A stretch of 24,212 nucleotides of DNA from a virus (Duplodnaviria > Heunggongvirae > Uroviricota > Caudoviricetes): the IMG/VR virus record IMGVR_UViG_2529292882_000019. The stretch is one strand, 5' to 3'. How positions within the stretch are numbered: position 1 is the stretch's first letter; every line of letters starts with the position of its first letter. A program made the position numbers and the translations under genes. Below, in pieces: positions 1 to 16,971 of this stretch. Below the pieces are notes generated by a model. That model was not told the DNA's origin and ran no database searches. It saw nothing but the letters and a program-made list of their open reading frames with translations.

Positions 1-1236
1 CTACGATAACCGCGCATTCAACATGGCTATCTGTTCGTCGTTCATGTCATCAATCCACATACCGTAAATTTCATACACCATCTGCGCAGTTTCATGCCCC
101 ATTTGGCTGGCTATAAATGCCGGGTTCGCTCCTGCCGTCAACAGCCAGCAGGCAAAAGTATGCCGCGTATGGTACGGATTACGGCGGCGAATACCAGCAC
201 GTTTTACTGCTGCATTCCACCTTGCCCCCAAACTGCTTACCGAGTAATAAGGTTTCTGTTTTCCGTTACACACCCTTGGCATGAAAACAAAATGCAGTTT
301 TTGCTTTTCGGTTCTGCCGTACTCCCGATGATAAAAGGTGATTTCGCTTTTGCGATGATGCCCGGTCAGTTTGTATTGCTCCTTCAGTGCTTCAAGAGCA
401 GGCTGCAGTAGTGTTACTGTCCGGATCCCGGCATTTGTTTTTGGGGGACCGAACATATCAAGTATCGTCAGGTTTCTTCTGACATTCACTATTCCCTTTT
501 CGAGATCCACATCCTCCCACGCCAGAGCAGCCAGTTCCCCGTGACGAAGTCCTGAGTAAACGGCAAATTTCCACAAGTTCTGGCTCTGTCCTTTTTCACT
601 TTCCATTAATGCATTGAATTCTGTTTTAGATAACGGATCAGGCTTTATTCTGTTTCGCTGTAATTTTTTTACTCCTTCAAATGGTTTGGTTGATATAAAT
701 CCCGACTGATACGCAAAACGTAACAGCGAACAGAGCAGGGCGATATAGTTATCAACTGTGCGCACGGTTCTTCCTTTTTTGTTGGATCTTGGATTATCCA
801 GGTAAAGCGTTTCTCCATGCAGCAGTTCATTCCGGTAGTTTAAGATATCGCTATAACGAATATGTGATATCGGGGTACTTTCACAAATTATTATTCTGAG
901 TGTTTTTAATTGTGATTTCGTTTTCTTCATTGTGTTTGTTGTTAACTCTGTCTCTTTAATTTTTGTCCAGATATCACAAAGCTCCCCGAACGTTTTTATG
1001 ACTCTCGTTGTCACCATTTTTGCCCCAGCGCTGGACTGGGGAAAACGTCTTAAATACTCAAATTCACCGGAGTTTATTTCATGAACTATCAGCGCTCTTA
1101 AATTTCCGGCCTTTTTAATATTACTGTTTGTAATCTCCCAGCCTTTTAATGTTTCCCGACATCGTTTTCCTCGAAACATGAACCAGATGCGAATGTATCT
1201 ACCTCTAATCTCGACACCTGTTGGTAATTTAGACAT
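1..1236 (-). CDS. intR: Tyrosine site-specific integrase (phage integrase, Rac IntR-like), 411 aa
   Basis: 411-aa minus-strand ORF. C-terminal region carries the tyrosine-recombinase catalytic signature (HTRHTF ... Y in AGIRRRNPYHTRHTFACWLL...MVYEIYGMW). Start overlaps the stop of the excisionase-like gene. First gene of a minus-strand early operon. Confidence 0.9.
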   Translation of the reverse strand: MSKLPTGVEIRGRYIRIWFMFRGKRCRETLKGWEITNSNIKKAGNLRALIVHEINSGEFEYLRRFPQSSAGAKMVTTRVIKTFGELCDIWTKIKETELTTNTMKKTKSQLKTLRIIICESTPISHIRYSDILNYRNELLHGETLYLDNPRSNKKGRTVRTVDNYIALLCSLLRFAYQSGFISTKPFEGVKKLQRNRIKPDPLSKTEFNALMESEKGQSQNLWKFAVYSGLRHGELAALAWEDVDLEKGIVNVRRNLTILDMFGPPKTNAGIRTVTLLQPALEALKEQYKLTGHHRKSEITFYHREYGRTEKQKLHFVFMPRVCNGKQKPYYSVSSLGARWNAAVKRAGIRRRNPYHTRHTFACWLLTAGANPAFIASQMGHETAQMVYEIYGMWIDDMNDEQIAMLNARLS

Positions 1237-1237
1237 A

Positions 1238-1453
1238 TCATGAGTCTTTGATAAACTGATTTATCTTTGGATAGTTGTACCAGATAATCCCTCGTTTGCT
1301 GTCTGGCTTACCTAAAGGAGATACTCGCTTGAAGTGGAAGCCCTCCACCCAACAGTTCTGGCGGTATGCTTCAATTTGTCTGGCCCCCAGACCAGTACGA
1401 AGCATCAGACCGTATTCAACCATCCACTCTTCATTAAAAATCACTTGTGCCAT
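1238..1453 (-). CDS. xisR: Excisionase-like small DNA-binding protein, 71 aa from an RBS-supported ATG (ORF track extends to 1477)
   Basis: Small ORF immediately upstream of int on the same strand. GAGGTGA lies 4-10 nt before the ATG at 1453. Position and the 71-aa size match the Rac excisionase. Confidence 0.65.
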
Positions 1454-1552
1454 CGCATCACCTCTGGCGGGCGACAATATTAGACTGAAATTGACGCCCG
1501 ACGTTGATTATTAATAATCAGCTATGAAGTTTTAATTTGAATACAATGCAAC

Positions 1553-1741
1553 TCACGAGGACAGAAGTTTCTCGCAATTAAAATTTATCAGTTTTACTTT
1601 CTGCTCTCTGGAAACGCCTGCTTCTTTTTTCCCTGAGAGCATTTTTTCGCATTCTGATTTCGTTAATTTAGATTTTGAATATCTTATCCAGTTAGTAGGA
1701 GTGCCACCTTCTTTTTCAATAGTGGCGGTAATTTTATACAT
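1553..1741 (-). CDS. Small hypothetical early protein (YdaC-like position), 62 aa from a GGAGG-supported ATG; frame is open up to 1813
   Basis: Minus-strand ORF between ralR-like and xis. GGAGG sits 6 nt before the ATG at 1741. The longer 86-aa form would overlap the upstream gene. Confidence 0.45.
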   Translation of the reverse strand: MYKITATIEKEGGTPTNWIRYSKSKLTKSECEKMLSGKKEAGVSREQKVKLINFNCEKLLSS

Positions 1742-1964
1742 GAACACCTCCATTATTATTTCCAGTGGTTCGTTTATTCCATCGTTCGAGTGCTTCTTTT
1801 TCACTTCCACCATAGCCGGTTCGGGATTCGCATCCGTTACACTTCGCGCGGTAATATCCTGAAATGGCTTTCACCGTTACTGATGGACAACCACAAAAAG
1901 GGCATGGTTTGACTTTTGTGTATCGCACTGGTTTTTCTCCTGTGAGCTTTGTGGCTGCGCTCAT
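1734..1964 (-). CDS. ralR: Lar/RalR-family restriction-alleviation protein (zinc-ribbon; RalR is also described as a type I toxin)
   Basis: Small protein with CPFCG...CNGC four-cysteine motif, as in Lar-family proteins. ATGA start/stop overlap with exo at 1961-1964. Located in the early operon next to the recombination genes. Confidence 0.6.
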
Positions 1965-2641
1965 TTCCATTGCTCCCCAAATACAAAACCAATTTCAGCC
2001 AGTGCCTCGTCCATTTTTTCGATGAATTCTGGCACCATCTCGTCAAAACTCGCCATGTACTTTTCATCCCGCTCAACCACGACATAATGCAGGCCTTCAC
2101 GCTTCATACGCGGGTCATAGTTGGCAAAGTACCAGGCATCTTTTTGCGTCACCCACATGCTGTACTGCACCTGGGCTATGTAAGCCGACTTTATGGCCCC
2201 GAAACCACCGAGCCGGAACTTCATGAAATCCCGGGAGGTAAACGGGCATTTCAGTTCAAGGCCGTTACCGTCGTTGCATAAGCCATCGGGAGAGCAGGCG
2301 GTGCGCATAGTCTCGTCACGATAGATGATCGGGGATTCAGTAACATTCACGCCGGAAATGAACTCAAACAGGGCTCTGGCGTCGTTCTCGTACTGTTTTC
2401 CCCAGGCCAGTGCTTTAGCGTTAACTTCTGGGGTCACTCCGGTGCAGACCTCAGCCAGCAGGGTGTGGAAGTAGGACATTTTCATGTCAGGCCATTTCTT
2501 TCCTGAGCGGGGTTTTGCTATCACGTTGTGAACTTCTGAAGCTGTGATGACGCCGAGCCGTAATTTGTGCCACGCATCATCCCCTTGTTTAACAGTTCTC
2601 ACGTCGATTCCTGTACGTTGCAGGATAATGTCAGGAGTCAT
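1961..2641 (-). CDS. exo: Lambda exonuclease (Red-alpha), 226 aa
   Basis: Protein [15 protein letters not shown]...GFVFGEQWK is near-identical by recall to phage lambda Exo and has the same length. ATGA coupling to bet. Confidence 0.95.
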
Positions 2642-3417
2642 GCTGCCACCTTCTGCTCTGCGGCTTTCCGTTTCAGGAATCCAAGAGTTTTCACTGCTTC
2701 GGTCTGCGTCAGTTCTGATGATGCGCGAATGTCGCGGCGAAGTATCTGGGAACAGAGCGGCAATAAGTCGTCATCCCATGTTTTATCCAGGGCGATCAGC
2801 AGAGCGTTAATCTCCTGCATGGTTTCATCGTTAACCGGAGTGATGTCGCGTTCCGGCTGACTTTCTGATGCGGTATTTTCGACAATGCGCTCGGCTTCAT
2901 CCTTGTCATAGATACCAGCAAATCCGAAGGCCAGACGGGCACACTGAATCATGGCTTTATGCCGTAACATCCGTTTGGGGTGCGACTGCCACGGCCCCGT
3001 AACTTCTTTGCCTTCGCGGGTTTTGAATGGTTCGCGGCGGCACTCATCCATCCACTCGGTAACGCAGATCGGATGATTGCGGTCCTTGCGGTAAATCCGG
3101 CATGTACAGGATTCATTGTCCTGCTCAAAGTCCATACCATCAAACTGCTGGTTTTCATTGATGATGCGGGACCAGCCATCAACGCCCACCACCGGAACGA
3201 TACCATTCTGCTTATCAGGGAAGGCGTAAATCTCTTTCGTCCACGGATTAAGACCGTACTGGTTGGCGACGATCAGCAGCGCGATGAATTGCGCATCGCT
3301 GGCATTGCCTTTAAATGCTGTCTGGCGAAGAGTGGCGATCAGTTCCTGCGGGTCGACAGTATCCATGCCGACACGTTCAGCCAGCTTCCCGGCCAGCGTT
3401 GCGAGTGCTGTACTCAT
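2638..3417 (-). CDS. bet: Lambda Bet (Red-beta) single-strand annealing protein
   Basis: Protein [19 protein letters not shown]...AAEQKVAA matches lambda Bet along its full length by recall. Sits between gam and exo as in lambda. Confidence 0.95.
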
Positions 3418-3422
3418 TCGTT

Positions 3423-3722
3423 TTATACCTCTGAATCAATATCAACCTGGTGACGCGCAATGGTTTCAACCATGTACCGGATGTGCTCCGCCACGCGTTC
3501 CTGAAATTCAACATCGTCATCAAATGCGCGACTGATTGCCTGTTTGCTGGCACCGTGGCGTTGCAAATGGTCGATGCAGAGCGATTCAAACAGGTGCTGG
3601 GGCAGACCTTTTTCCAGGTCGTCCGCCAGTTCCGTTTCTTTTTCTTCGCGAACGATCTTCTGGTAGTGGCGTGACCATGCCAGCTCTTCAATGCGATCAA
3701 AAATCGGGCATGTGCTCATCAT
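3423..3722 (-). CDS. gam: Gam, RecBCD inhibitor (short GamS-like form)
   Basis: C-terminal two-thirds (WSRHYQ...[34 protein letters not shown]...HQVDIDSEV) matches lambda Gam by recall. Lies directly upstream of bet. Confidence 0.85.
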
Positions 3723-5730
3723 CTGTTACCCCAAAATTTTCAAGTTTGTTTGCGATCATCATTGCAATACCCGGAATTAATGGCGCTGAGGCTATACCTG
3801 CAGGATTCGCACATAAACCGTAAACCGCCGCAATCACCACTTGTCTTTTCCAGTCGAGTTTTTCTAATGATGAAGCTGCTGCTTCGCCAGTTTCATCACT
3901 GCAATCGCGATGCGGATCGCTGCCAGCATTCTCCTTGTGTGGATGTTCAGCGCCTTCCATTTTCTCCGGCTCATTTTCCCGAACTTCAACCTGATTCTCG
4001 TCATCGAATGTTTCCTGATATATTGCGTCGCCCATCACCGCACCACAGTCAGGGCAGTTATCCCCGCCAGACTGACCGCAGGCATTGCAAACTTTTTCTA
4101 CTTCCTGTTGCGCCACTGGTTCAGGCTGTTTCGTTTCTGGCTCGTTTTGTAACGCATTTGGGCTGTTTTGTTCCGCTTTCTGGTCGTTCTGTTCCGATTC
4201 TTGTTGGTTCTGGTTCACTGAATCGCGGGTTTCAATCCCCTTCACCCATTTCGGATCATTCGGGTCGCTAATCCCCTCAACAAATTCACCACGTGATGCA
4301 GCAAGCAACTTATCGGCATCGACAGGATTTTTTGATGGAATGTTTTTCCGGGCTTCATGGAGTTCTGCCCGCAGTTCTTGATATTTCGCATCAACAGAAT
4401 TTACCTGTGACTGAGCATCCAGCGGCTGCGTGTCCTGATGATGTTCAGTTGCGTCCGGTTCCATTGTTTCAGCCTCTCCCTGTTCATCTGCCGTTGTTCC
4501 AGATGGTTGCGGTTTTTCTTCATCATCCTGTTTTCCTTCTTCTGTTACACGCTGCGGCATCGGGGCAGAGGAACGACCGCAGGCAATATCCACGATTTCC
4601 GGATCAGGGTTGGCATGATCAGTTTCAGTCAGTACTTTGTTCAGATATTCAGTGACGTGCGCGGGGGTGACCTCGATCCCAATTGGTGCTTCTTTCACGG
4701 ACGCAACCACGATGGCGCGGGAATAATCCAGCCCGCCAGGCATGGTGATGAATTTGTCGCGGAAAACAGAAAAGGGCGGTTTATTTTCAGCGATAATTTC
4801 CTCAATGCGTTTAGCGTGTGCCGGATGAAGGTTATAGATGTCCACGTCCATTGAACGGGCAAGTACGCCAGTGGCTACATCGCGTGCCAGTGACGTCAGA
4901 TCGTGGACGAAACCTTCGCCGCGATCGGTGAGGTTCCCGCCGCCAGCATTAGCACCGGAAGCCGTGCGAGTGATGCGTGAAACACGATTCCCTTTTCGCC
5001 ATTCTTTTGTCAGAAGACCGCGATCAATGTGTTCGGTATCCAGCCAGGCTGAAATGAAATTCTTAAATTCATAGGGCTGATGTTTTTTCGTGATAGAGAA
5101 AACTGCCTTAATTGCATCAGTCAGGCGGAGCAGGGCGGCATTATCCAGAGTTGTCGGTTCTGCCATGCCGCGTATGGCCAACAGCAGATTCTGGACATAG
5201 CTGTTTTCCTGATCCATCTCAAGAGCAGTAATGTGTTCGCGTTGTTCACGGGTGGCATGATGCAGGTATTTCCGATCCCCGGCCGCATACGTAAAAATGT
5301 GCAGAAGACGCTGAGTGAACCGCAAAGTGGCTACAGAGACTTCACAATCCTGGCAATCCCCGTGGGCGTCTGCCTGCGCGTTTTCTTCCTGGCCTCCCGT
5401 CAGTTTTTCAGTTTCCTGAGCATTGTCCTGATAGTGAACGTCGTCTGGCGCTGCTCCCGGTTTTAGTTCCCAGGTCATGGAGTCTTTGCTGAGTTGATAG
5501 CGTTCACTCCAGGTAAAATCGATCTCACCTTCAGGGGGAAGGTCATTAACGACAGGAAAATTTGTGGCAACAGCTTTAAAATAGTTGCTCAGTTTTTTAC
5601 CTGACTTAACGATCAGGTAGTCCAGAGTGGCACAGGTCGATTCAAAATCGTCACTTGCCCACAGGACGACGTCAGGTTCACCGGATGATTTTTTCGCTTT
5701 CCGTAACAGGAAGAGTGGTTTTGTGCTCAT
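3697..5730 (-). CDS. Large early-operon protein of unknown function, 677 aa: globular N-terminal half, long acidic Q/E/D-rich low-complexity linker, CxxC...CxxC zinc ribbon, hydrophobic C-terminal tail
   Basis: Long uninterrupted minus-strand ORF with an upstream GAGG. Its 3' end overlaps the gam start by 26 nt. Occupies the kil/cIII position upstream of gam. No family recognised from sequence. Confidence 0.7.
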
Positions 5731-5828
5731 TGTTTTTTAACCTCAACTCAGATTAAAATTACTGCGAGTGATGAATAAATGTCCCAGGTTCTTCACTCAG
5801 GCCTGCACGTTGTGCAGGCTTTCTTTTT

Positions 5829-6104
5829 TCAGATTTCACCTTTTAATTTCATTGCAATCAGAGTTGCCAGAAATCCGGCTTTTTTTTCTGCGGGCAGATT
5901 CTTTCCGATGTGAACCAGACTCATTTTTGTGACACCTTCATCAAGTGTTTTTACGTTGCCTGATGGGCCGTCGATATCAACCACAGTGAATGGGGTTTCT
6001 TTATTTTCTGTTTTAATCACATAGCCAATACGCTTTCCTTCCAGATTAACCTCATGAACAATGTCATCGGTAGTTAAAACAGTGACTTCATAATTGGTAA
6101 TCAT
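5829..6104 (-). CDS. racC: Small early protein, 91 aa (RacC-like by position and size)
   Basis: AAGGAG lies 5 nt before the ATG. The run of 91/56/73-aa genes here matches the Rac racC-ydaE-kilR arrangement. Symbol assigned by synteny and size, not sequence recall. Confidence 0.55.
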   Translation of the reverse strand: MITNYEVTVLTTDDIVHEVNLEGKRIGYVIKTENKETPFTVVDIDGPSGNVKTLDEGVTKMSLVHIGKNLPAEKKAGFLATLIAMKLKGEI

Positions 6105-6177
6105 TTTTTCTCCTTAATTAAGGTTGAGCGAATCCCTGCCATTGCTGGCATAAATTCAGTTTCGCATAGTCAGTTAA

Positions 6178-6348
6178 TTAAAGTTCGTGTGCCATCTGGT
6201 CTTTTTCGGCACATATTTCACTACAATATTTTTTCATTTCCGTCGTTGGGATAACTCCATGCATGAAATGAAGTGGTCTTTTAATGCTTTTGCTTTCTTT
6301 AATTCCTTTATTGCAAAGGTGGTAAGCACATTTTATTTTCTTAGTCAT
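6178..6348 (-). CDS. ydaE: Small zinc-binding protein, 56 aa (YdaE-like); not in ORF track because it is under 60 aa
   Basis: Hand-translated: [56 protein letters not shown]. Cys pairs CxxxxC and CxxxC. ATGA overlap with the upstream kilR-like stop. Confidence 0.5.
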   Translation of the reverse strand: MTKKIKCAYHLCNKGIKESKSIKRPLHFMHGVIPTTEMKKYCSEICAEKDQMAHEL

Positions 6349-6569
6349 CACCATGACTCCGCCTTTACAGGTAAACCATCACGACCGAGGAAGACTTTAA
6401 TCATGCAGTCAGTAATGCATGTTTTTGTGGTCAGGTTACGAATATAAAGTTTTCGCTTTTTAATATTGTTTGCCGAGGCGATATATGTCCGGCCTTCATG
6501 AAGAACATAATCACCAGGAGTCACACACTGACGTGGTATTTCATCAGTTCCGAAGTGATGAGCAATCAT
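6348..6569 (-). CDS. kilR: KilR-like small protein, 73 aa from a GGAGA-supported ATG (ORF track gives a 77-aa form starting at 6581)
   Basis: The internal ATG at 6569 has GGAGA 6 nt upstream and gives the 73-aa size of Rac KilR. Position matches Rac early-region order. Confidence 0.5.
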
Positions 6570-6993
6570 AATTATCTCCATTTTTACAAATGAATTTTGT
6601 CGATGCGGTGCCTGGTGCCTCCAGGTGACGTTAACCAGTTAACAATTAACGCCGGATATTTCACCCATAACTCTGCTACGAAGGACAATAGCTTTTTAAC
6701 TGTTCCGCGTGCGCTTAGCCGCATTCACCGCATCACAAAATTCACTTTAAAAAGGGCGGACATCAGTCGAACTTCAAGAAAAAACTGATGCCGCCAAGAC
6801 TACACACAGCAGTGTTGTTATTCACAACCGGAGGCGCACTCCCACCATTTAAATTTAACAGGCAAGACCGACTCTTTATGGATATCGGAAATGCGCCTTC
6901 GTGTTGTGCCCGGTTTTATTTCACCACCTCCGGGCTTTGGTGGCCTCGGCTATACCCCTACAGCGAGAATATTGAATTAATCCAAATAATGGA

Positions 6994-7146
6994 TTAGCAA
7001 GTATTTCTGGCAAGCCAGCGACGTGCGCCCGTTTCAGTTTTGAATGTCTTGCTTTTGGTATAAGTCATGGCGGTGAACGTTCCATCCTGGTTGGGGAACA
7101 CGCCACACACCAGGGATTCGTTGTTGCCGAGGTCGATTTTTTGCAT
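6994..7146 (-). CDS. ydaF: YdaF-like small protein, 50 aa (hand-translated; not in ORF track)
   Basis: MQKIDLGNNESLVCGVFPNQDGTFTAMTYTKSKTFKTETGARRWLARNTC with GAGGTG RBS. Replaces the track ORF 7065..7256, which is in another frame. Confidence 0.55.
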   Translation of the reverse strand: MQKIDLGNNESLVCGVFPNQDGTFTAMTYTKSKTFKTETGARRWLARNTC

Positions 7147-7156
7147 TTTTCGCACC

Positions 7157-7291
7157 TCACATTTTGTTGTTGCGGATAGAGGCTTCTGCCTGCCAGAGAT
7201 CCCAGTCGTTGCTGCGTAGAGCCTGTACAGCCTGGCTGTAAGTGATACCGCAACAATCCATCAAATACTGAACTACTTCGTAATGCACCAT
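7157..7291 (-). CDS. ydaG: YdaG-like small protein, 44 aa (hand-translated)
   Basis: MVHYEVVQYLMDCCGITYSQAVQALRSNDWDLWQAEASIRNNKM with GGGAGAG RBS. Lies between the repressor gene and the ydaF-like gene as in Rac. Confidence 0.55.
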   Translation of the reverse strand: MVHYEVVQYLMDCCGITYSQAVQALRSNDWDLWQAEASIRNNKM

Positions 7292-7484
7292 TTTATCTCT
7301 CCCTTTAACGCCGGGTGGCGGAACTAAAACCTACAGCGCCGTGCTGTTCTTGATAGAAATATTAGTAACACGGATATTTTAAGTCAACAGTATGGCGTAT
7401 AATATTTTTGATTTGGTAACTATGTAAATGTTTTTTCAAGGGAAAAATATTAGTTATACAGCTGATTTGCAGAAGTTATGGCAC

Positions 7485-7518
7485 AAAAAAAACCGACTAA
7501 GACGTCGGTTTTTTTTGT
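7485..7518. terminator. Bidirectional rho-independent terminator downstream of the repressor gene
   Basis: Stem ACCGAC/GTCGGT with a 6-nt loop, flanked by an A8 run on one side and a T8 run on the other. Confidence 0.7.
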
Positions 7519-7542
7519 TGTGGATGGGGTAGTGAGCGGTGG

Positions 7543-8004
7543 CTACTGGTTACGTTTCTTTAGTGCCAGCATGTTCTCGAAGGCTTCCTCGTAGAGCTTG
7601 TTTAGTCCACGTAGCTGGTTAAGGAGTTTGGCTTTTTCTGACGCAGGTAGAATCTCGAAGAGGTTAAGCAACTCTGCCTGTTCTTCATTGACCAGCCTCC
7701 ATCCTTTGCCTGAAAAGCTATCATCATAAGTATCTGATGATCTTACATAATTCATTAAGTCTTTAAGGTCTTCTCGAATGTCCTCTGGTTTTACCTTTAA
7801 CAGAGCCGCAAATTTTAGCGCAGCGTCGGTATTTACCGGTATCTTGCCGTTCAGATACTGGCTAACGGTGCCTTGAGATTCGAATCCCAACAACTCAGCC
7901 GCCAGCTCTTGAGTCAGCTTCAGCTCTTTTTTTCTTGCATTCCATGCGGCTTTTAAATTCTTGCTCGCTTCTGGAGTTGCAATCACTTCGCGTGTTTTTT
8001 TCAT
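7543..8004 (-). CDS. racR: Prophage repressor (CI functional analogue, RacR-like), 153 aa
   Basis: N-terminal XRE-type HTH (LTQELAAELLGFESQGTVSQYLNGK). Divergent from a Cro-like gene across a 100-bp AT-rich intergenic region. No obvious SD, compatible with a leaderless maintenance transcript. Confidence 0.75.
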   Translation of the reverse strand: MKKTREVIATPEASKNLKAAWNARKKELKLTQELAAELLGFESQGTVSQYLNGKIPVNTDAALKFAALLKVKPEDIREDLKDLMNYVRSSDTYDDSFSGKGWRLVNEEQAELLNLFEILPASEKAKLLNQLRGLNKLYEEAFENMLALKKRNQ

Positions 8005-12436: not shown

Positions 12437-12506
12437 TTAAATTTAGTGTTGTAAATAAAATTTAATCCTTAACCGGAGGGATTTCTGCACCCTCAAATAA
12501 TCAGGA

Positions 12507-12526
12507 GGCCGCCCAAAAGGGCGGCT
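12507..12526. terminator. Bidirectional hairpin terminator between the Ea22-like gene and the 4-TM gene
   Basis: Stem GCCGCCC/GGGCGGC with AAAA loop. Moderately U-rich downstream on both strands. Confidence 0.5.
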
Positions 12527-12536
12527 GTTCCGCTGT

Positions 12537-13091
12537 TCAATTATCTAAAATTGTGCTAAATCTTTTTATTACCATTAAGAACGTTATAACAGTGATAAAA
12601 AAGGATGTATAGGCTAAAAAGCTAACAATATATGCAGGTGCGCGAAAATACCATTTCATTAAATCCACTGCATTGTCAGGCAGGAAATATATTATCACTG
12701 AAAATATAACCAATACTATTGAAGTTAATATTGCATAAGCGACGTTGTGGCATAACTGCTCATATATGGTTTTGTTAGTGTTTAATGATATCAATTTGTC
12801 TCGGGATTTGTTTCCTTCAATTATGTCTGATATCTTAGTGATGGTTTTTTGTTTTTGTTCATAAATCATTATTACTGCACTCATTAATAGTGCTGTTGTA
12901 ATAGCCCCGAAGTTAACAAAGACGGAAGCAATTGCCGGTTTCATTATTCCGTATGTCCAGCACAGAACGAAAGAAAGAGATAACGGAACAATAAAATGTA
13001 CGATAATGTCGCTCATCAACATTGTTCCACGCTGATCTGACATTGTTTTGTAGTGTTTTATTATTACACCCAGCACATTTATTTTATTCAT
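12537..13091 (-). CDS. Small integral membrane protein with four predicted TM helices, 184 aa; putative effector of a two-gene cassette
   Basis: Four hydrophobic segments (IIVHFIVPLSLSFVLCWTYGI; AIASVFVNFGAITTALLMSAVIMIY; VAYAILTSIVLVIFSVIIYFL; APAYIVSFLAYTSFFITVITFLMVI). ATGA start/stop overlap with the upstream gene and AGGGGTGA RBS. Strongly AT-rich codon usage unlike the flanking prophage genes. Confidence 0.75.
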   Translation of the reverse strand: MNKINVLGVIIKHYKTMSDQRGTMLMSDIIVHFIVPLSLSFVLCWTYGIMKPAIASVFVNFGAITTALLMSAVIMIYEQKQKTITKISDIIEGNKSRDKLISLNTNKTIYEQLCHNVAYAILTSIVLVIFSVIIYFLPDNAVDLMKWYFRAPAYIVSFLAYTSFFITVITFLMVIKRFSTILDN

Positions 13092-14019
13092 ATAATCACC
13101 CCTTTGTTTCCGCTATGCAGTTCTAACAATATATCATTAGAAAGGTTTTTTATCGTGTCATGAAGTGCTGTTAGATCAGGTATGCCTGTTAATGGGTCGA
13201 TTTTTAGATCATTATCATCTAACTCTGCGGAAATTCCTTTTTTTAGTATGGTATCATAATTGAAAACGACAGTCCGACTGCCGAGTTGTAAGCTTACTTT
13301 TATTGCATCACATTTATCTTCAATAATCTCAATGATGTTTCCTATATTCTTGTTTCTTAAATCCCTGAAACTTCCGAACATGCCATCGTTTGCTTTTATT
13401 ATTAAGTCTGTCTTGATGTTTGTTTTGTTTTGACCAAAGGAATCAGCAATGTCTTTTGGTGCTTTATATCCTTGAGCCTTAATTTGTTTTAATTCGGAAT
13501 TGAGAATATATTGAGGGATTTTCTTATGATGTAATGGATTGATTCTTGCTTCGAGTTGAAATTTGTTTTTTAGATATTCAGTGATAGAATCAGAAAGGAC
13601 ACCTCGAGCAGAAATATTATCGCAAGAGTGGAATGCAATAATTCCTTCTTTAAGGGCGTCTGGTAGGTATATTAAAATATAACGTTCTTTGAGTGTTACA
13701 TCATAAGCAGTTGTCCTATAGTGGATTTTTTTGAGTTTTACATCTTTTATTTCACTGCTTTCTCCATATTTCCCAACTTTTATATAACCATATATAATTT
13801 TTTTGAGTTATCAAAGTGAAGTTTAGCGTGTTGTTCCAGAGATATTTTAGTTTTGGATACGCCAAACTCGATGGGGGTGTTTTTATATAGAGTAAAATAA
13901 TCAACAAAAAGTTCATATGCCGTTTTTTTATTACTTAAACCCAATTCATTAAGTTTTTTGCTGGCTCGACTGCCTTTATGGGTCAATACGCGGAATGAAT
14001 AGAAATTAACGCTGTGCAT
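13088..14019 (-). CDS. Soluble protein of about 310 aa encoded in two frames: 79-aa ORF (14019..13780) plus a 240-codon open frame (13807..13088) joined by a -1 shift at an A7 tract (13798..13804); possible pseudogene, homopolymer error or slippage
   Basis: AAGGA RBS 7 nt before the ATG at 14019. The downstream frame has no stop for 240 codons and no ATG/GTG/TTG before codon 143, which is unlikely by chance in AT-rich DNA. Heptamer A_AAA_AAA sits in the 25-nt window where both frames are open. Contains an Rx4H motif (RINPLH). Confidence 0.6.
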
Positions 14020-14043
14020 GAAAAGTCCTTTTGAACATATAGG

Positions 14044-14070
14044 AATATACTAGAACATAAATAGATGCAA
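14044..14070 (-). promoter_or_regulatory. Candidate sigma70 promoter for the two-gene cassette
   Basis: On the minus strand: TTGCAT, 15-nt spacer, TATATT, ending about 25 nt upstream of the cassette ATG. Spacing is suboptimal. Confidence 0.2.
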
Positions 14071-14421
14071 TGCATAAAGGAAAAGCTACCGCAGGGCGAA
14101 CTCACCCACCGATAGCTCTTAACTGGTTGTTTGTAAAAGATAATACATAAATTGGGGCTGTGTAAAGAGGTAAGCATCGTCAGGGCAAGGGAGATGTGTT
14201 AGGCGATATTGGTAAAATTTTCGTTGAGGATAAAAACGGTTTGCGGGAAAAGGAGAGTTAAGTAGAATTGCTGCGGGTGCTTGAGGCTATCTGCCTCGGG
14301 CATGAACACCAACGGCAGATAGATAAAAGCCCCACCCGACTATAAATCGAAGTGAGGCCCCTATATGCTCGTCACATATAGATTGCCTCTTACTGACCGA
14401 AAGGTCAAGGAGAAGCAGGCT

Positions 14422-14577
14422 ATGAAGCAGCAAAAGGCGATGTTAATCGCCCTGATCGTCATCTGTTTAACCGTCATAGTGACGGCACTGGTAACGAGGA
14501 AAGACCTCTGCGAGGTACGAATCCGAACCGGCCAGACGGAGGTCGCTGTCTTCACAGCTTACGAACCTGAGGAGTAA
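14422..14577 (+). CDS. hokD: Hok/Gef-family type I toxin, 51 aa (HokD/RelF-like)
   Basis: MKQQKAMLIALIVICLTVIVTALVTRKDLCEVRIRTGQTEVAVFTAYEPEE: single TM helix plus conserved C-terminal periplasmic region of Hok toxins. Followed by a strong terminator. Confidence 0.8.
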   Translation: MKQQKAMLIALIVICLTVIVTALVTRKDLCEVRIRTGQTEVAVFTAYEPEE

Positions 14578-16817: not shown

Positions 16818-16893
<76 letters not shown>

Positions 16894-16896
16894 TAT

Positions 16897-16971
<75 letters not shown>

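Follow-up and report, generated by a model that had tools for sequence, protein, structure and literature searches.

Between gam and the small Rac-like early genes of the prophage in IMG/VR record IMGVR_UViG_2529292882_000019 (Caudoviricetes) lies one large open reading frame (ORF), and the question raised by this locus is what its product is and what it may do there. The window referred to below is the whole stretch of DNA analysed, 24,212 nt in length. A sequence-only reading of it had described a protein with a globular N-terminal half, an acidic low-complexity region, a zinc-ribbon-like motif and a hydrophobic C-terminal segment, and had proposed it as a candidate host-takeover or anti-defence protein in a slot where small kil/cIII-type genes are expected. 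The ORF itself is real and the described anatomy is correct, as is the account of its neighbours, with gam, bet and exo downstream and Rac-like small early genes upstream. Comparison with its relatives leads to a different identity, however: the product is, from the alignments, a non-catalytic member of the RecE family that is under selection, and its C-terminal tail sits where sister proteins have exonuclease domains.

Relationship to RecE

A single ORF covers 3697..5730 of the minus strand, with a GAGG sequence approximately 11 nt 5′ of its ATG. It is far beyond chance, as homologues number in the thousands, and the ratio of nonsynonymous to synonymous substitution rates (dN/dS) for the whole ORF is 0.23 against a phage orthologue with 60 % identity. 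Pfam family PF06630 (Exonuc_VIII) matches residues 2-182 with an E-value of 4.4e-68 and 229.6 bits, set against a cut-off of 25, and residues 1-620 align to positions 1-600 of the 877 in the NCBIfam RecE equivalog model NF007259. The score for the latter, 991.6 bits, falls under the cut-off of 1269, since nothing in the ORF corresponds to the final third of the model. At the protein level the ORF displays 74 % identity to K-12 RecE and 91 % to RecE of strain E9 (1054 amino acids, aa), in each case up to a ...DCSDETGE sequence at residue ~617; past residues ~617-619 the sequences are unrelated. The closest of the full-length proteins, an 897-aa RecE that carries PF06630 and the PF12684 nuclease (P0009), is 99 % identical across the first 91 % of the ORF. 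Neither PF12684 nor any other nuclease family was found in the ORF by Pfam scan, and no match to it was found amongst PDB sequences by either a single-sequence or a profile search. It is therefore almost certain that the ORF represents the N-terminal region (residues 1-~619) of RecE, or exodeoxyribonuclease VIII, without the PD-(D/E)XK nuclease domain. Since the catalytic domain is absent, 5′-3′ dsDNA exonuclease activity would not be expected of the product.

Of the known systems closest to it, one is RecE of the K-12 Rac prophage (b1350, 866 aa), to which residues 1-~619 are homologous; their identity to RecE proteins from other E. coli is 91-99 %. The two share prophage type, the ttcA attachment region and operon position, with racC-like, ydaE and kilR genes upstream and ralR, xis and int downstream. 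They differ in what follows the homologous portion. The nuclease domain of K-12 RecE comprises residues 564-866 (PMC11611040), and this C-terminal nuclease, the only part of RecE with known activity and structure, is absent from the ORF. Whilst RecE has no tail of the kind seen here and is followed by recT, the ORF ends in a conserved tail, and recT is not immediately downstream, its place being taken by gam, bet and a lambda-type exo. The Prokaryotic Genome Annotation Pipeline nevertheless labels a 99.3 %-identical locus in E. coli OkiPb01695 as a 'RecE family exodeoxyribonuclease'.

This relationship also settles the nature of the slot. Comparison across prophages, which the sequence-only reading had suggested, was informative: in Rac-type prophages it is recE that occupies this position, rather than small kil/cIII-type genes, and the real kilR lies at 6348-6581. 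With 677 aa and no match to the Kil, KilR, cIII or DicB families, the ORF does not belong with such genes. Two outcomes had been named as speaking against the proposed function, of which one was found and the other was not; the ORF is plainly homologous to RecE, whose part in recombination is characterised, but it is a mosaic built from intact homologues, in which degraded genes have no share. The statement that its function is uncharacterised was borne out, as the RecE N-terminal domain is described as being of unknown function, its one published phenotype being in recombination (PMC11611040, PMC11610958). In the literature searched, no paper gives the RecE N-region a function.

The anatomy of the ORF is as follows, residue numbers being those of the protein.

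3697..5730, minus: RecE-like ORF, 677 aa plus stop, ATG start
5431..5730, minus: residues 1-100, small alpha/beta N-terminal domain, first part of the PF06630 match
5025..5422, minus: residues ~103-235, variable sub-region, from blastn gaps and protein alignment
4531..5358, minus: residues 125-400, all-helical globular domain, predicted with high confidence
4243..4398, minus: residues 445-496, two helices then a short conserved motif, within disordered sequence
4027..4095, minus: residues 546-568, CxxC...CxxC zinc-ribbon-like motif, Rac/75-02 clade only
3874..4026, minus: residues 569-619, acidic disordered linker
3700..3873, minus: residues 620-677, C-terminal tail
3736-3855, minus: residues 626-665, helix-loop-helix motif of the tail

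A model of the protein was predicted by AlphaFold2 with a 90-sequence alignment. The predicted local distance difference test score (pLDDT) exceeds 90 for residues 1-100, which form an alpha/beta fold, and for residues 125-400, which are all-helical, so that the globular N-terminal half is upheld. It falls below 50 in four D/E/Q/N-rich stretches (100-124, 410-443, 497-543 and 570-620), in keeping with the low-complexity region described earlier. Residues 236-400 are the conserved core of the helical domain and contain motifs that include DIACGRSS. Structure prediction of the head thereby delivered a confident fold but no structural relative: a Foldseek search of the predicted head against PDB and BFVD returned nothing at E ≤ 0.001. 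The helical domain belongs to no Pfam family, and profile searches against PDB sequences and PADLOC were empty. Catalysis of a PD-(D/E)XK-like kind by Asp and Lys residues of the core was considered and rejected on inspection, the domain being all-helical and the spacing of the residues unsuited.

The zinc-ribbon-like motif, CNAC...CPDC, is present at residues 548-563, and its four cysteines are invariant in the four close relatives aligned. Matches to Pfam DZR and DUF2321 at this putative zinc ribbon are weak and below cut-offs. In divergent proteins that bear the same type of tail, a helical insert of ~100 residues between core and tail replaces it, with the consensus SGRTNIM..EEAE.VV...FSDEEIHDVATT.LD.WSDD..VRQKIALDAIVEYR.

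A short linear motif also occurs at residues ~480-495 (window 4243-4290), within disordered sequence, and is shared by several 25 %-identical tail-type proteins, e.g. LAAERGEFVPGISDPSDPKW. It may constitute a second docking motif.

Mosaic structure and the C-terminal tail

The point at which the ORF departs from RecE coincides with a change in the origin of the DNA. By blastn, window positions 1-1939 are 98 % identical to K-12 Rac and positions 3876-6968 approximately 90 %, whilst 1967-3857 are 88 % identical to Shigella phage 75/02 Stx. An exchanged cassette, with Rac-like DNA on both sides, can thus be delimited together with the genes it contains.

1940..3875, minus: exchanged cassette of ~1.9 kb, comprising tail, gam, bet and exo
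3857..3876: right-hand mosaic junction, where 75/02 similarity ends (3857) and Rac-type recE similarity begins (3874-3876)
3423..3722, minus: gam, short and GamS-like, 98-99 aa (Pfam PF06064, E-value 5.5e-56)
2638..3417, minus: bet, Red-beta-type annealase (Pfam)
1961..2641, minus: exo, lambda-type, YqaJ/lambda exonuclease family, 226 aa (Pfam)

The crossover point falls within the acidic linker, and the cassette brings with it the last ~58 codons of the ORF as well as gam, bet and exo, substituting for the RecE nuclease domain and recT in a prophage that is Rac-like elsewhere and lies at ttcA. From these matches, the cassette comes from a phage-75/02-like lambdoid, and the ORF is a recombinant of two intact homologues, with a Rac-type body and a 75/02-type tail. 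The exact junction is rare, being present in 27 of 5,426 complete E. coli genomes. The order recE′-gam-bet-exo also occurs in the deposited phage genomes of 75/02 Stx, POCJ13, PhiR5_2 and phiSTEC1589-Stx1c. Gp06 of 75/02 Stx, named 'Exonuclease VIII/VII' (YP_009226838, 682 aa), and its equivalents in the other three phages share the whole architecture of the ORF, zinc ribbon and tail included. As here, gam-bet-exo lies downstream in 75/02 Stx, and the cassette from tail to exo is 88 % identical at the DNA level. Gp06 is homologous over its whole length, but with only 60 % protein identity, and the N-terminal ~235 residues of the ORF are of the Rac/E9 type. Within this portion, residues ~103-235 (5025-5422) have no DNA match in K-12 recE, are ~96 % identical to E9 recE and match 75/02 more weakly; the RecE N-region therefore has at least two allelic cassettes.

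With regard to the tail, two alignments, one of 20 and one of 78 proteins that bear it (22-66 % identity with the ORF), yield the subfamily consensus LTYRQQLTIAALQGLCANPA-x5-DDIPxMAxxLA, of which QQLTIAALQGLCANP...DDIP.MA..LA is a short form. Residues 626-665 of the ORF conform to the motif QQL.IAA.QGLCANP...(D/E)(D/E)(I/L)P.MA..LA, although its own clade has A-P-L-I-P in place of the central acidic pair. Five residues (A634, A635, G638, N642 and P643) are invariant over the 78 sequences and all are present in the ORF, and no other stretch of 20 residues in the tail subfamily is as conserved as 626-645. Compared with phage 75/02, dN/dS is 0.098 for the tail, 0.096 for the core (236-400) and 0.7 for the acidic linker, these values being approximate as dS is ~1.5 and synonymous sites of the two compared tails are near saturation. 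On these comparisons, the tail is under strong purifying selection, and is the signature module of an old, nuclease-less RecE-like subfamily rather than the product of read-through.

AlphaFold2 predicts two tail helices of ~14 residues each, at 627-640 and 652-665, with a loop between them, but with a pLDDT of only 52-69; use of the 20-sequence alignment as input did not raise this confidence. On its own the tail belongs to no Pfam family, and when tail and core were each compared with Pfam, PHROGs and PADLOC the sole match was the function-unknown phrog_26058, which matches the ORF core at 159-413 (E-value 1.7e-34) and the tail weakly (E-value 0.1). Two other origins for the tail were considered and rejected. 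As a module portable to other architectures it finds no support, as a tail-only profile run against 5.8 billion proteins retrieved just 16 fragments, all of them short and most with the name 'exodeoxyribonuclease VIII, partial', which is how tail-only remnants in Shigella are annotated. Nor does it derive from a gene upstream of gam in other lambdoids, since tblastn finds six phage records in which it is always the end of a RecE-like ORF; in 933W-type phages, similarity stops inside the gam N-terminus.

The hydrophobic C-terminal segment described by the sequence-only reading corresponds to residues ~627-665, and the reported overlap of the ORF 3′ end with the start of gam is likewise present. 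The stop codon occupies 3697-3699 and the candidate gam ATGs lie at 3722 and 3719, giving an overlap of 23-26 nt that takes in the last 8 codons of the ORF.

The E. coli SSB protein ends in the C-terminal tip DDDIPF. The C-terminus of the ORF, ...TDDEHMPDF, is encoded inside the gam overlap (3697-3722) and is an acidic Pro-Phe-type ending that resembles this tip. Endings of the DDEHMPDF type are confined to the E. coli clade (e.g. SDERLPDF in P0263), and are absent in phage 75/02 and divergent relatives.

Relatives and possible roles

When 1.84 billion cluster representatives were searched exhaustively, 258 proteins matched at E ≤ 0.001, indicating a small family. Amongst the 150 representatives listed (clusters at 50 % identity), the tail motif is present in 25, in every case with 0-8 residues between it and the C-terminus, whilst at the equivalent position 24 carry a PD-(D/E)XK nuclease and 15 a DnaQ-like 3′-5′ exonuclease. 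Comparison of P0009, P0039 and P0015 demonstrates that the end of the linker is the attachment point for nuclease, DnaQ-like or tail module in different relatives. The RecE-N::DnaQ-like fusions (WP_000102136, 813 aa; P0039, 820 aa; also P0044) resemble the ORF in their N-region, with ~93 % identity for P0039 and attachment after the acidic linker, but have a PF16473 exonuclease where the ORF has its tail, and xis-int directly after. One such gene, in an E. coli prophage at a potC site (NZ_CM180093.1 2870080-2872521), has xis-int directly after it and no annealase gene.

Clustered at 90 % identity, proteins of 649-677 aa with the intact nuclease-less architecture form no fewer than 14 distinct groups, and divergent tail-type proteins were located at 7 genome loci (in Buttiauxella, Citrobacter, Lelliottia and Cedecea) and 80 viral-contig loci. 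These divergent proteins (~600-640 aa) have no Pfam match at all, and no close relative amongst 50,697 GenBank phage records. A Rac-type integrase begins ~0.5 kb past the stop of the tail gene in 47 of the 80 viral loci. At one of them, designated L097 (tail gene 6001-7905), Pfam assignments give the order helix-turn-helix repressor, two small ORFs, 634-aa tail protein, DUF4060, excisionase and integrase; small downstream ORFs at other tail-type loci are Rrf2-like, DUF7740 or excisionase. The ORF occupies the same position as its relatives, in an early-left operon transcribed towards xis-int. Most of them, however, have 1-3 small ORFs between the tail gene and xis-int, where the present prophage has gam, bet, exo, ralR and the DUF1187 gene, and most nuclease-less relatives also differ in having no adjacent Red genes and in bearing the ~100-residue helical insert instead of the zinc ribbon. 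Across the family, recT pairs with the PD-(D/E)XK type only, and Red with the 75/02 clade only, this window included.

Nuclease-less proteins termed 'RecE-2' have been reported from lambdoid early-left operons, with their role stated to be unknown (PMC12315714). They and the ORF are alike in being RecE-related, without a nuclease domain and in an early-left operon. The tail-bearing subfamily, which in PHROGs corresponds to phrog_26058, is probably the same as RecE-2, for which the text of that paper gives neither sequences nor a motif.

As to what such a protein might do, the role that we infer for it as the most likely is that of an accessory scaffold for DNA-end processing or recombination, in which the tail stands in for a covalent link to a nuclease; the likelihood of this lies at, or slightly short of, an even balance. 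Under such a scheme the RecE N-region would be an autonomous, non-catalytic module, composed of an orphan-fold head and a long disordered acidic string with short conserved motifs, and its job would be the targeting or scaffolding of DNA-end processing. In sister proteins it would be covalently joined to a 5′-3′ PD-(D/E)XK or a 3′-5′ DnaQ-like exonuclease, and in the tail type the terminal helix-loop-helix would replace this link, whether through self-association or through contact in trans with a partner, which would be a nuclease or some other DNA-end factor. The candidate partner would be a host factor or, in this case, possibly the co-inherited Red proteins, such that in this prophage the protein may be an accessory to Exo/Bet/Gam recombination. 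A bolder extension of this, which we regard as rather unlikely, would make the N-region a universal adaptor that can exchange one C-terminal effector for another out of three: a 5′-3′ exonuclease, a 3′-5′ exonuclease, or a docking peptide of ~45 residues that recruits a nuclease or a different DNA-end factor in trans (a host protein where there is no Red or RecT).

A number of observations weigh against the scaffold reading, the chief of them being the solitary setting of most relatives, which have no annealase gene beside them. Genes for Gam, Bet, lambda Exo, K-12-type RecT and the RecE nuclease were found within 6 kb at none of the 80 viral and none of the 7 genome tail-type loci, other annealase types having been covered by Pfam scans of some ORFs at a few loci only. 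The family therefore needs no annealase nearby, which weakens a strictly recombination-based interpretation; and with Red genes near none of these 87 divergent loci, lambda Exo, Bet and Gam are excluded as a universal, obligate partner of the tail. The zinc-ribbon-like motif is present in just 3 of 78 tail-subfamily members. The low confidence of the tail helices and the near-saturation of synonymous sites, both given above, count in the same direction, as does the fact that the scaffold role is reached by inference.

The main competitor is the possibility that the protein is a host-takeover or anti-defence factor unrelated to recombination, in which the head and the acidic, possibly DNA-mimicking stretches act on a host target and the nuclease fusions are secondary. 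Its solitary setting elsewhere would suit this, in that the majority of tail-type relatives, like the DnaQ-type fusion, occupy an early-left operon by themselves with no annealase gene near, as would the location of this early-operon gene close to kilR, ralR and gam, its orphan fold, its very acidic disordered regions and the lack of a known function for the RecE N-region in the literature (PMC11611040). Yet no PADLOC, Pfam or fold match points to the anti-defence or host-takeover function that had been proposed. No PADLOC-DB model matched the ORF or its divergent L097 homologue at E ≤ 1, although this is weak evidence as PADLOC holds defence and not anti-defence models, and there is no homology to Kil, cIII, Ral or Gam. 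The recurrent fusion partners are DNA exonucleases only, and the sole published phenotype of the N-region is recombination (PMC11611040, PMC11610958). A takeover role is considered doubtful.

Less probable still is that the ORF has no function and is what was left of recE after the replacement of recT by lambda-type Red genes had removed its nuclease, the frame being open only through recency. The swap is recent in this lineage, given that the body is 99 % identical to the full-length RecE P0009, and both the rarity of the exact junction and the nature of the element, a Rac-like prophage of a kind often defective, would fit such decay. This is difficult to reconcile, however, with a tail that is the most conserved part of its subfamily and has a dN/dS of ~0.1 against the 60 %-identical orthologue, or with an architecture that is intact in deposited Stx phage genomes, in the clusters of 649-677 aa described above and in divergent genera. 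The remaining proposal, a tail-anchored inner-membrane protein held by the hydrophobic C-terminal segment, is the most improbable of all. The best 19-residue Kyte-Doolittle window of the ORF, within residues ~627-665, averages 1.62, a borderline value for a membrane helix; but the same segment scores 0.49-1.27 in 19 divergent members (1.69 in the closest relative, P0123), the family tail holds a conserved central acidic pair (DD/DE) plus Gln, Asn and Pro, and the prediction is of two short helices with a loop, not of a single spanning helix. A transmembrane reading of the tail was rejected on the basis of this family-wide hydropathy.

Surroundings and significance

Beyond the cassette, several further features of the window can be assigned. 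Upstream of the ORF lie the small early genes, and beyond exo the downstream order is ralR, the DUF1187 gene, xis and int.

5829-6104: RacC-like ORF, upstream neighbour
6178-6354: ydaE, upstream neighbour
6348-6581: kilR, upstream neighbour
1734-1970, minus: ralR (Lar-type) ORF
1557-1735, plus: RalA small RNA (Rfam RF02694, 222 bits), antisense to the DUF1187 ORF
14275-14424, plus: match to the sok antitoxin RNA (RF01794)
16818-16971, plus: tRNA-Thr(TGT) and tRNA-Gly(TCC), adjacent and phage-borne

A GC-rich hairpin, GCCTGCAC-AACG-TGCAGGC, lies on the minus strand at 5800-5826, between the RacC-like ORF and the RecE-like start, with no T-run after it. The RalR/RalA type I toxin-antitoxin pair occupies 1557-1970. 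Further along, a low-GC island (GC 0.32-0.35 at 12.5-14 kb) adjoins the sok match, and the region 12500-14424 is probably a hok/sok-type module with moron cargo.

With regard to the significance of the RecE-like protein, the gene is already annotated, although misleadingly, and nuclease-less relatives of RecE are already in the literature, so that the gain is incremental. What is new is a precise map of the mosaic, a defined motif for the conserved C-terminus, the finding that three kinds of module alternate at that end, and the recognition that genes of the tail and DnaQ types are usually solitary and next to xis-int. Names such as 'RecE family exodeoxyribonuclease', 'exodeoxyribonuclease VIII' and 'exonuclease VII/VIII' mislead, in that they are applied to a protein without a nuclease domain. 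RecE is in daily use for recombineering (RecET direct cloning), yet its N-terminal ~600 residues have long gone without explanation. A free-standing protein that is under selection, with its own C-terminal motif, alongside three alternative modules, argues that the RecE N-region is an autonomous functional module. The tail motif, together with the natural phages that combine Red with the RecE N-region (75/02 and POCJ13), offers a handle on its partner and function. Were the adaptor proposal true, the stand-alone form would represent a previously unrecognised means by which temperate phages hijack host DNA-end processing, and the adaptor would account for the efficient linear-linear recombination performed by full-length RecE but not by the nuclease domain alone.

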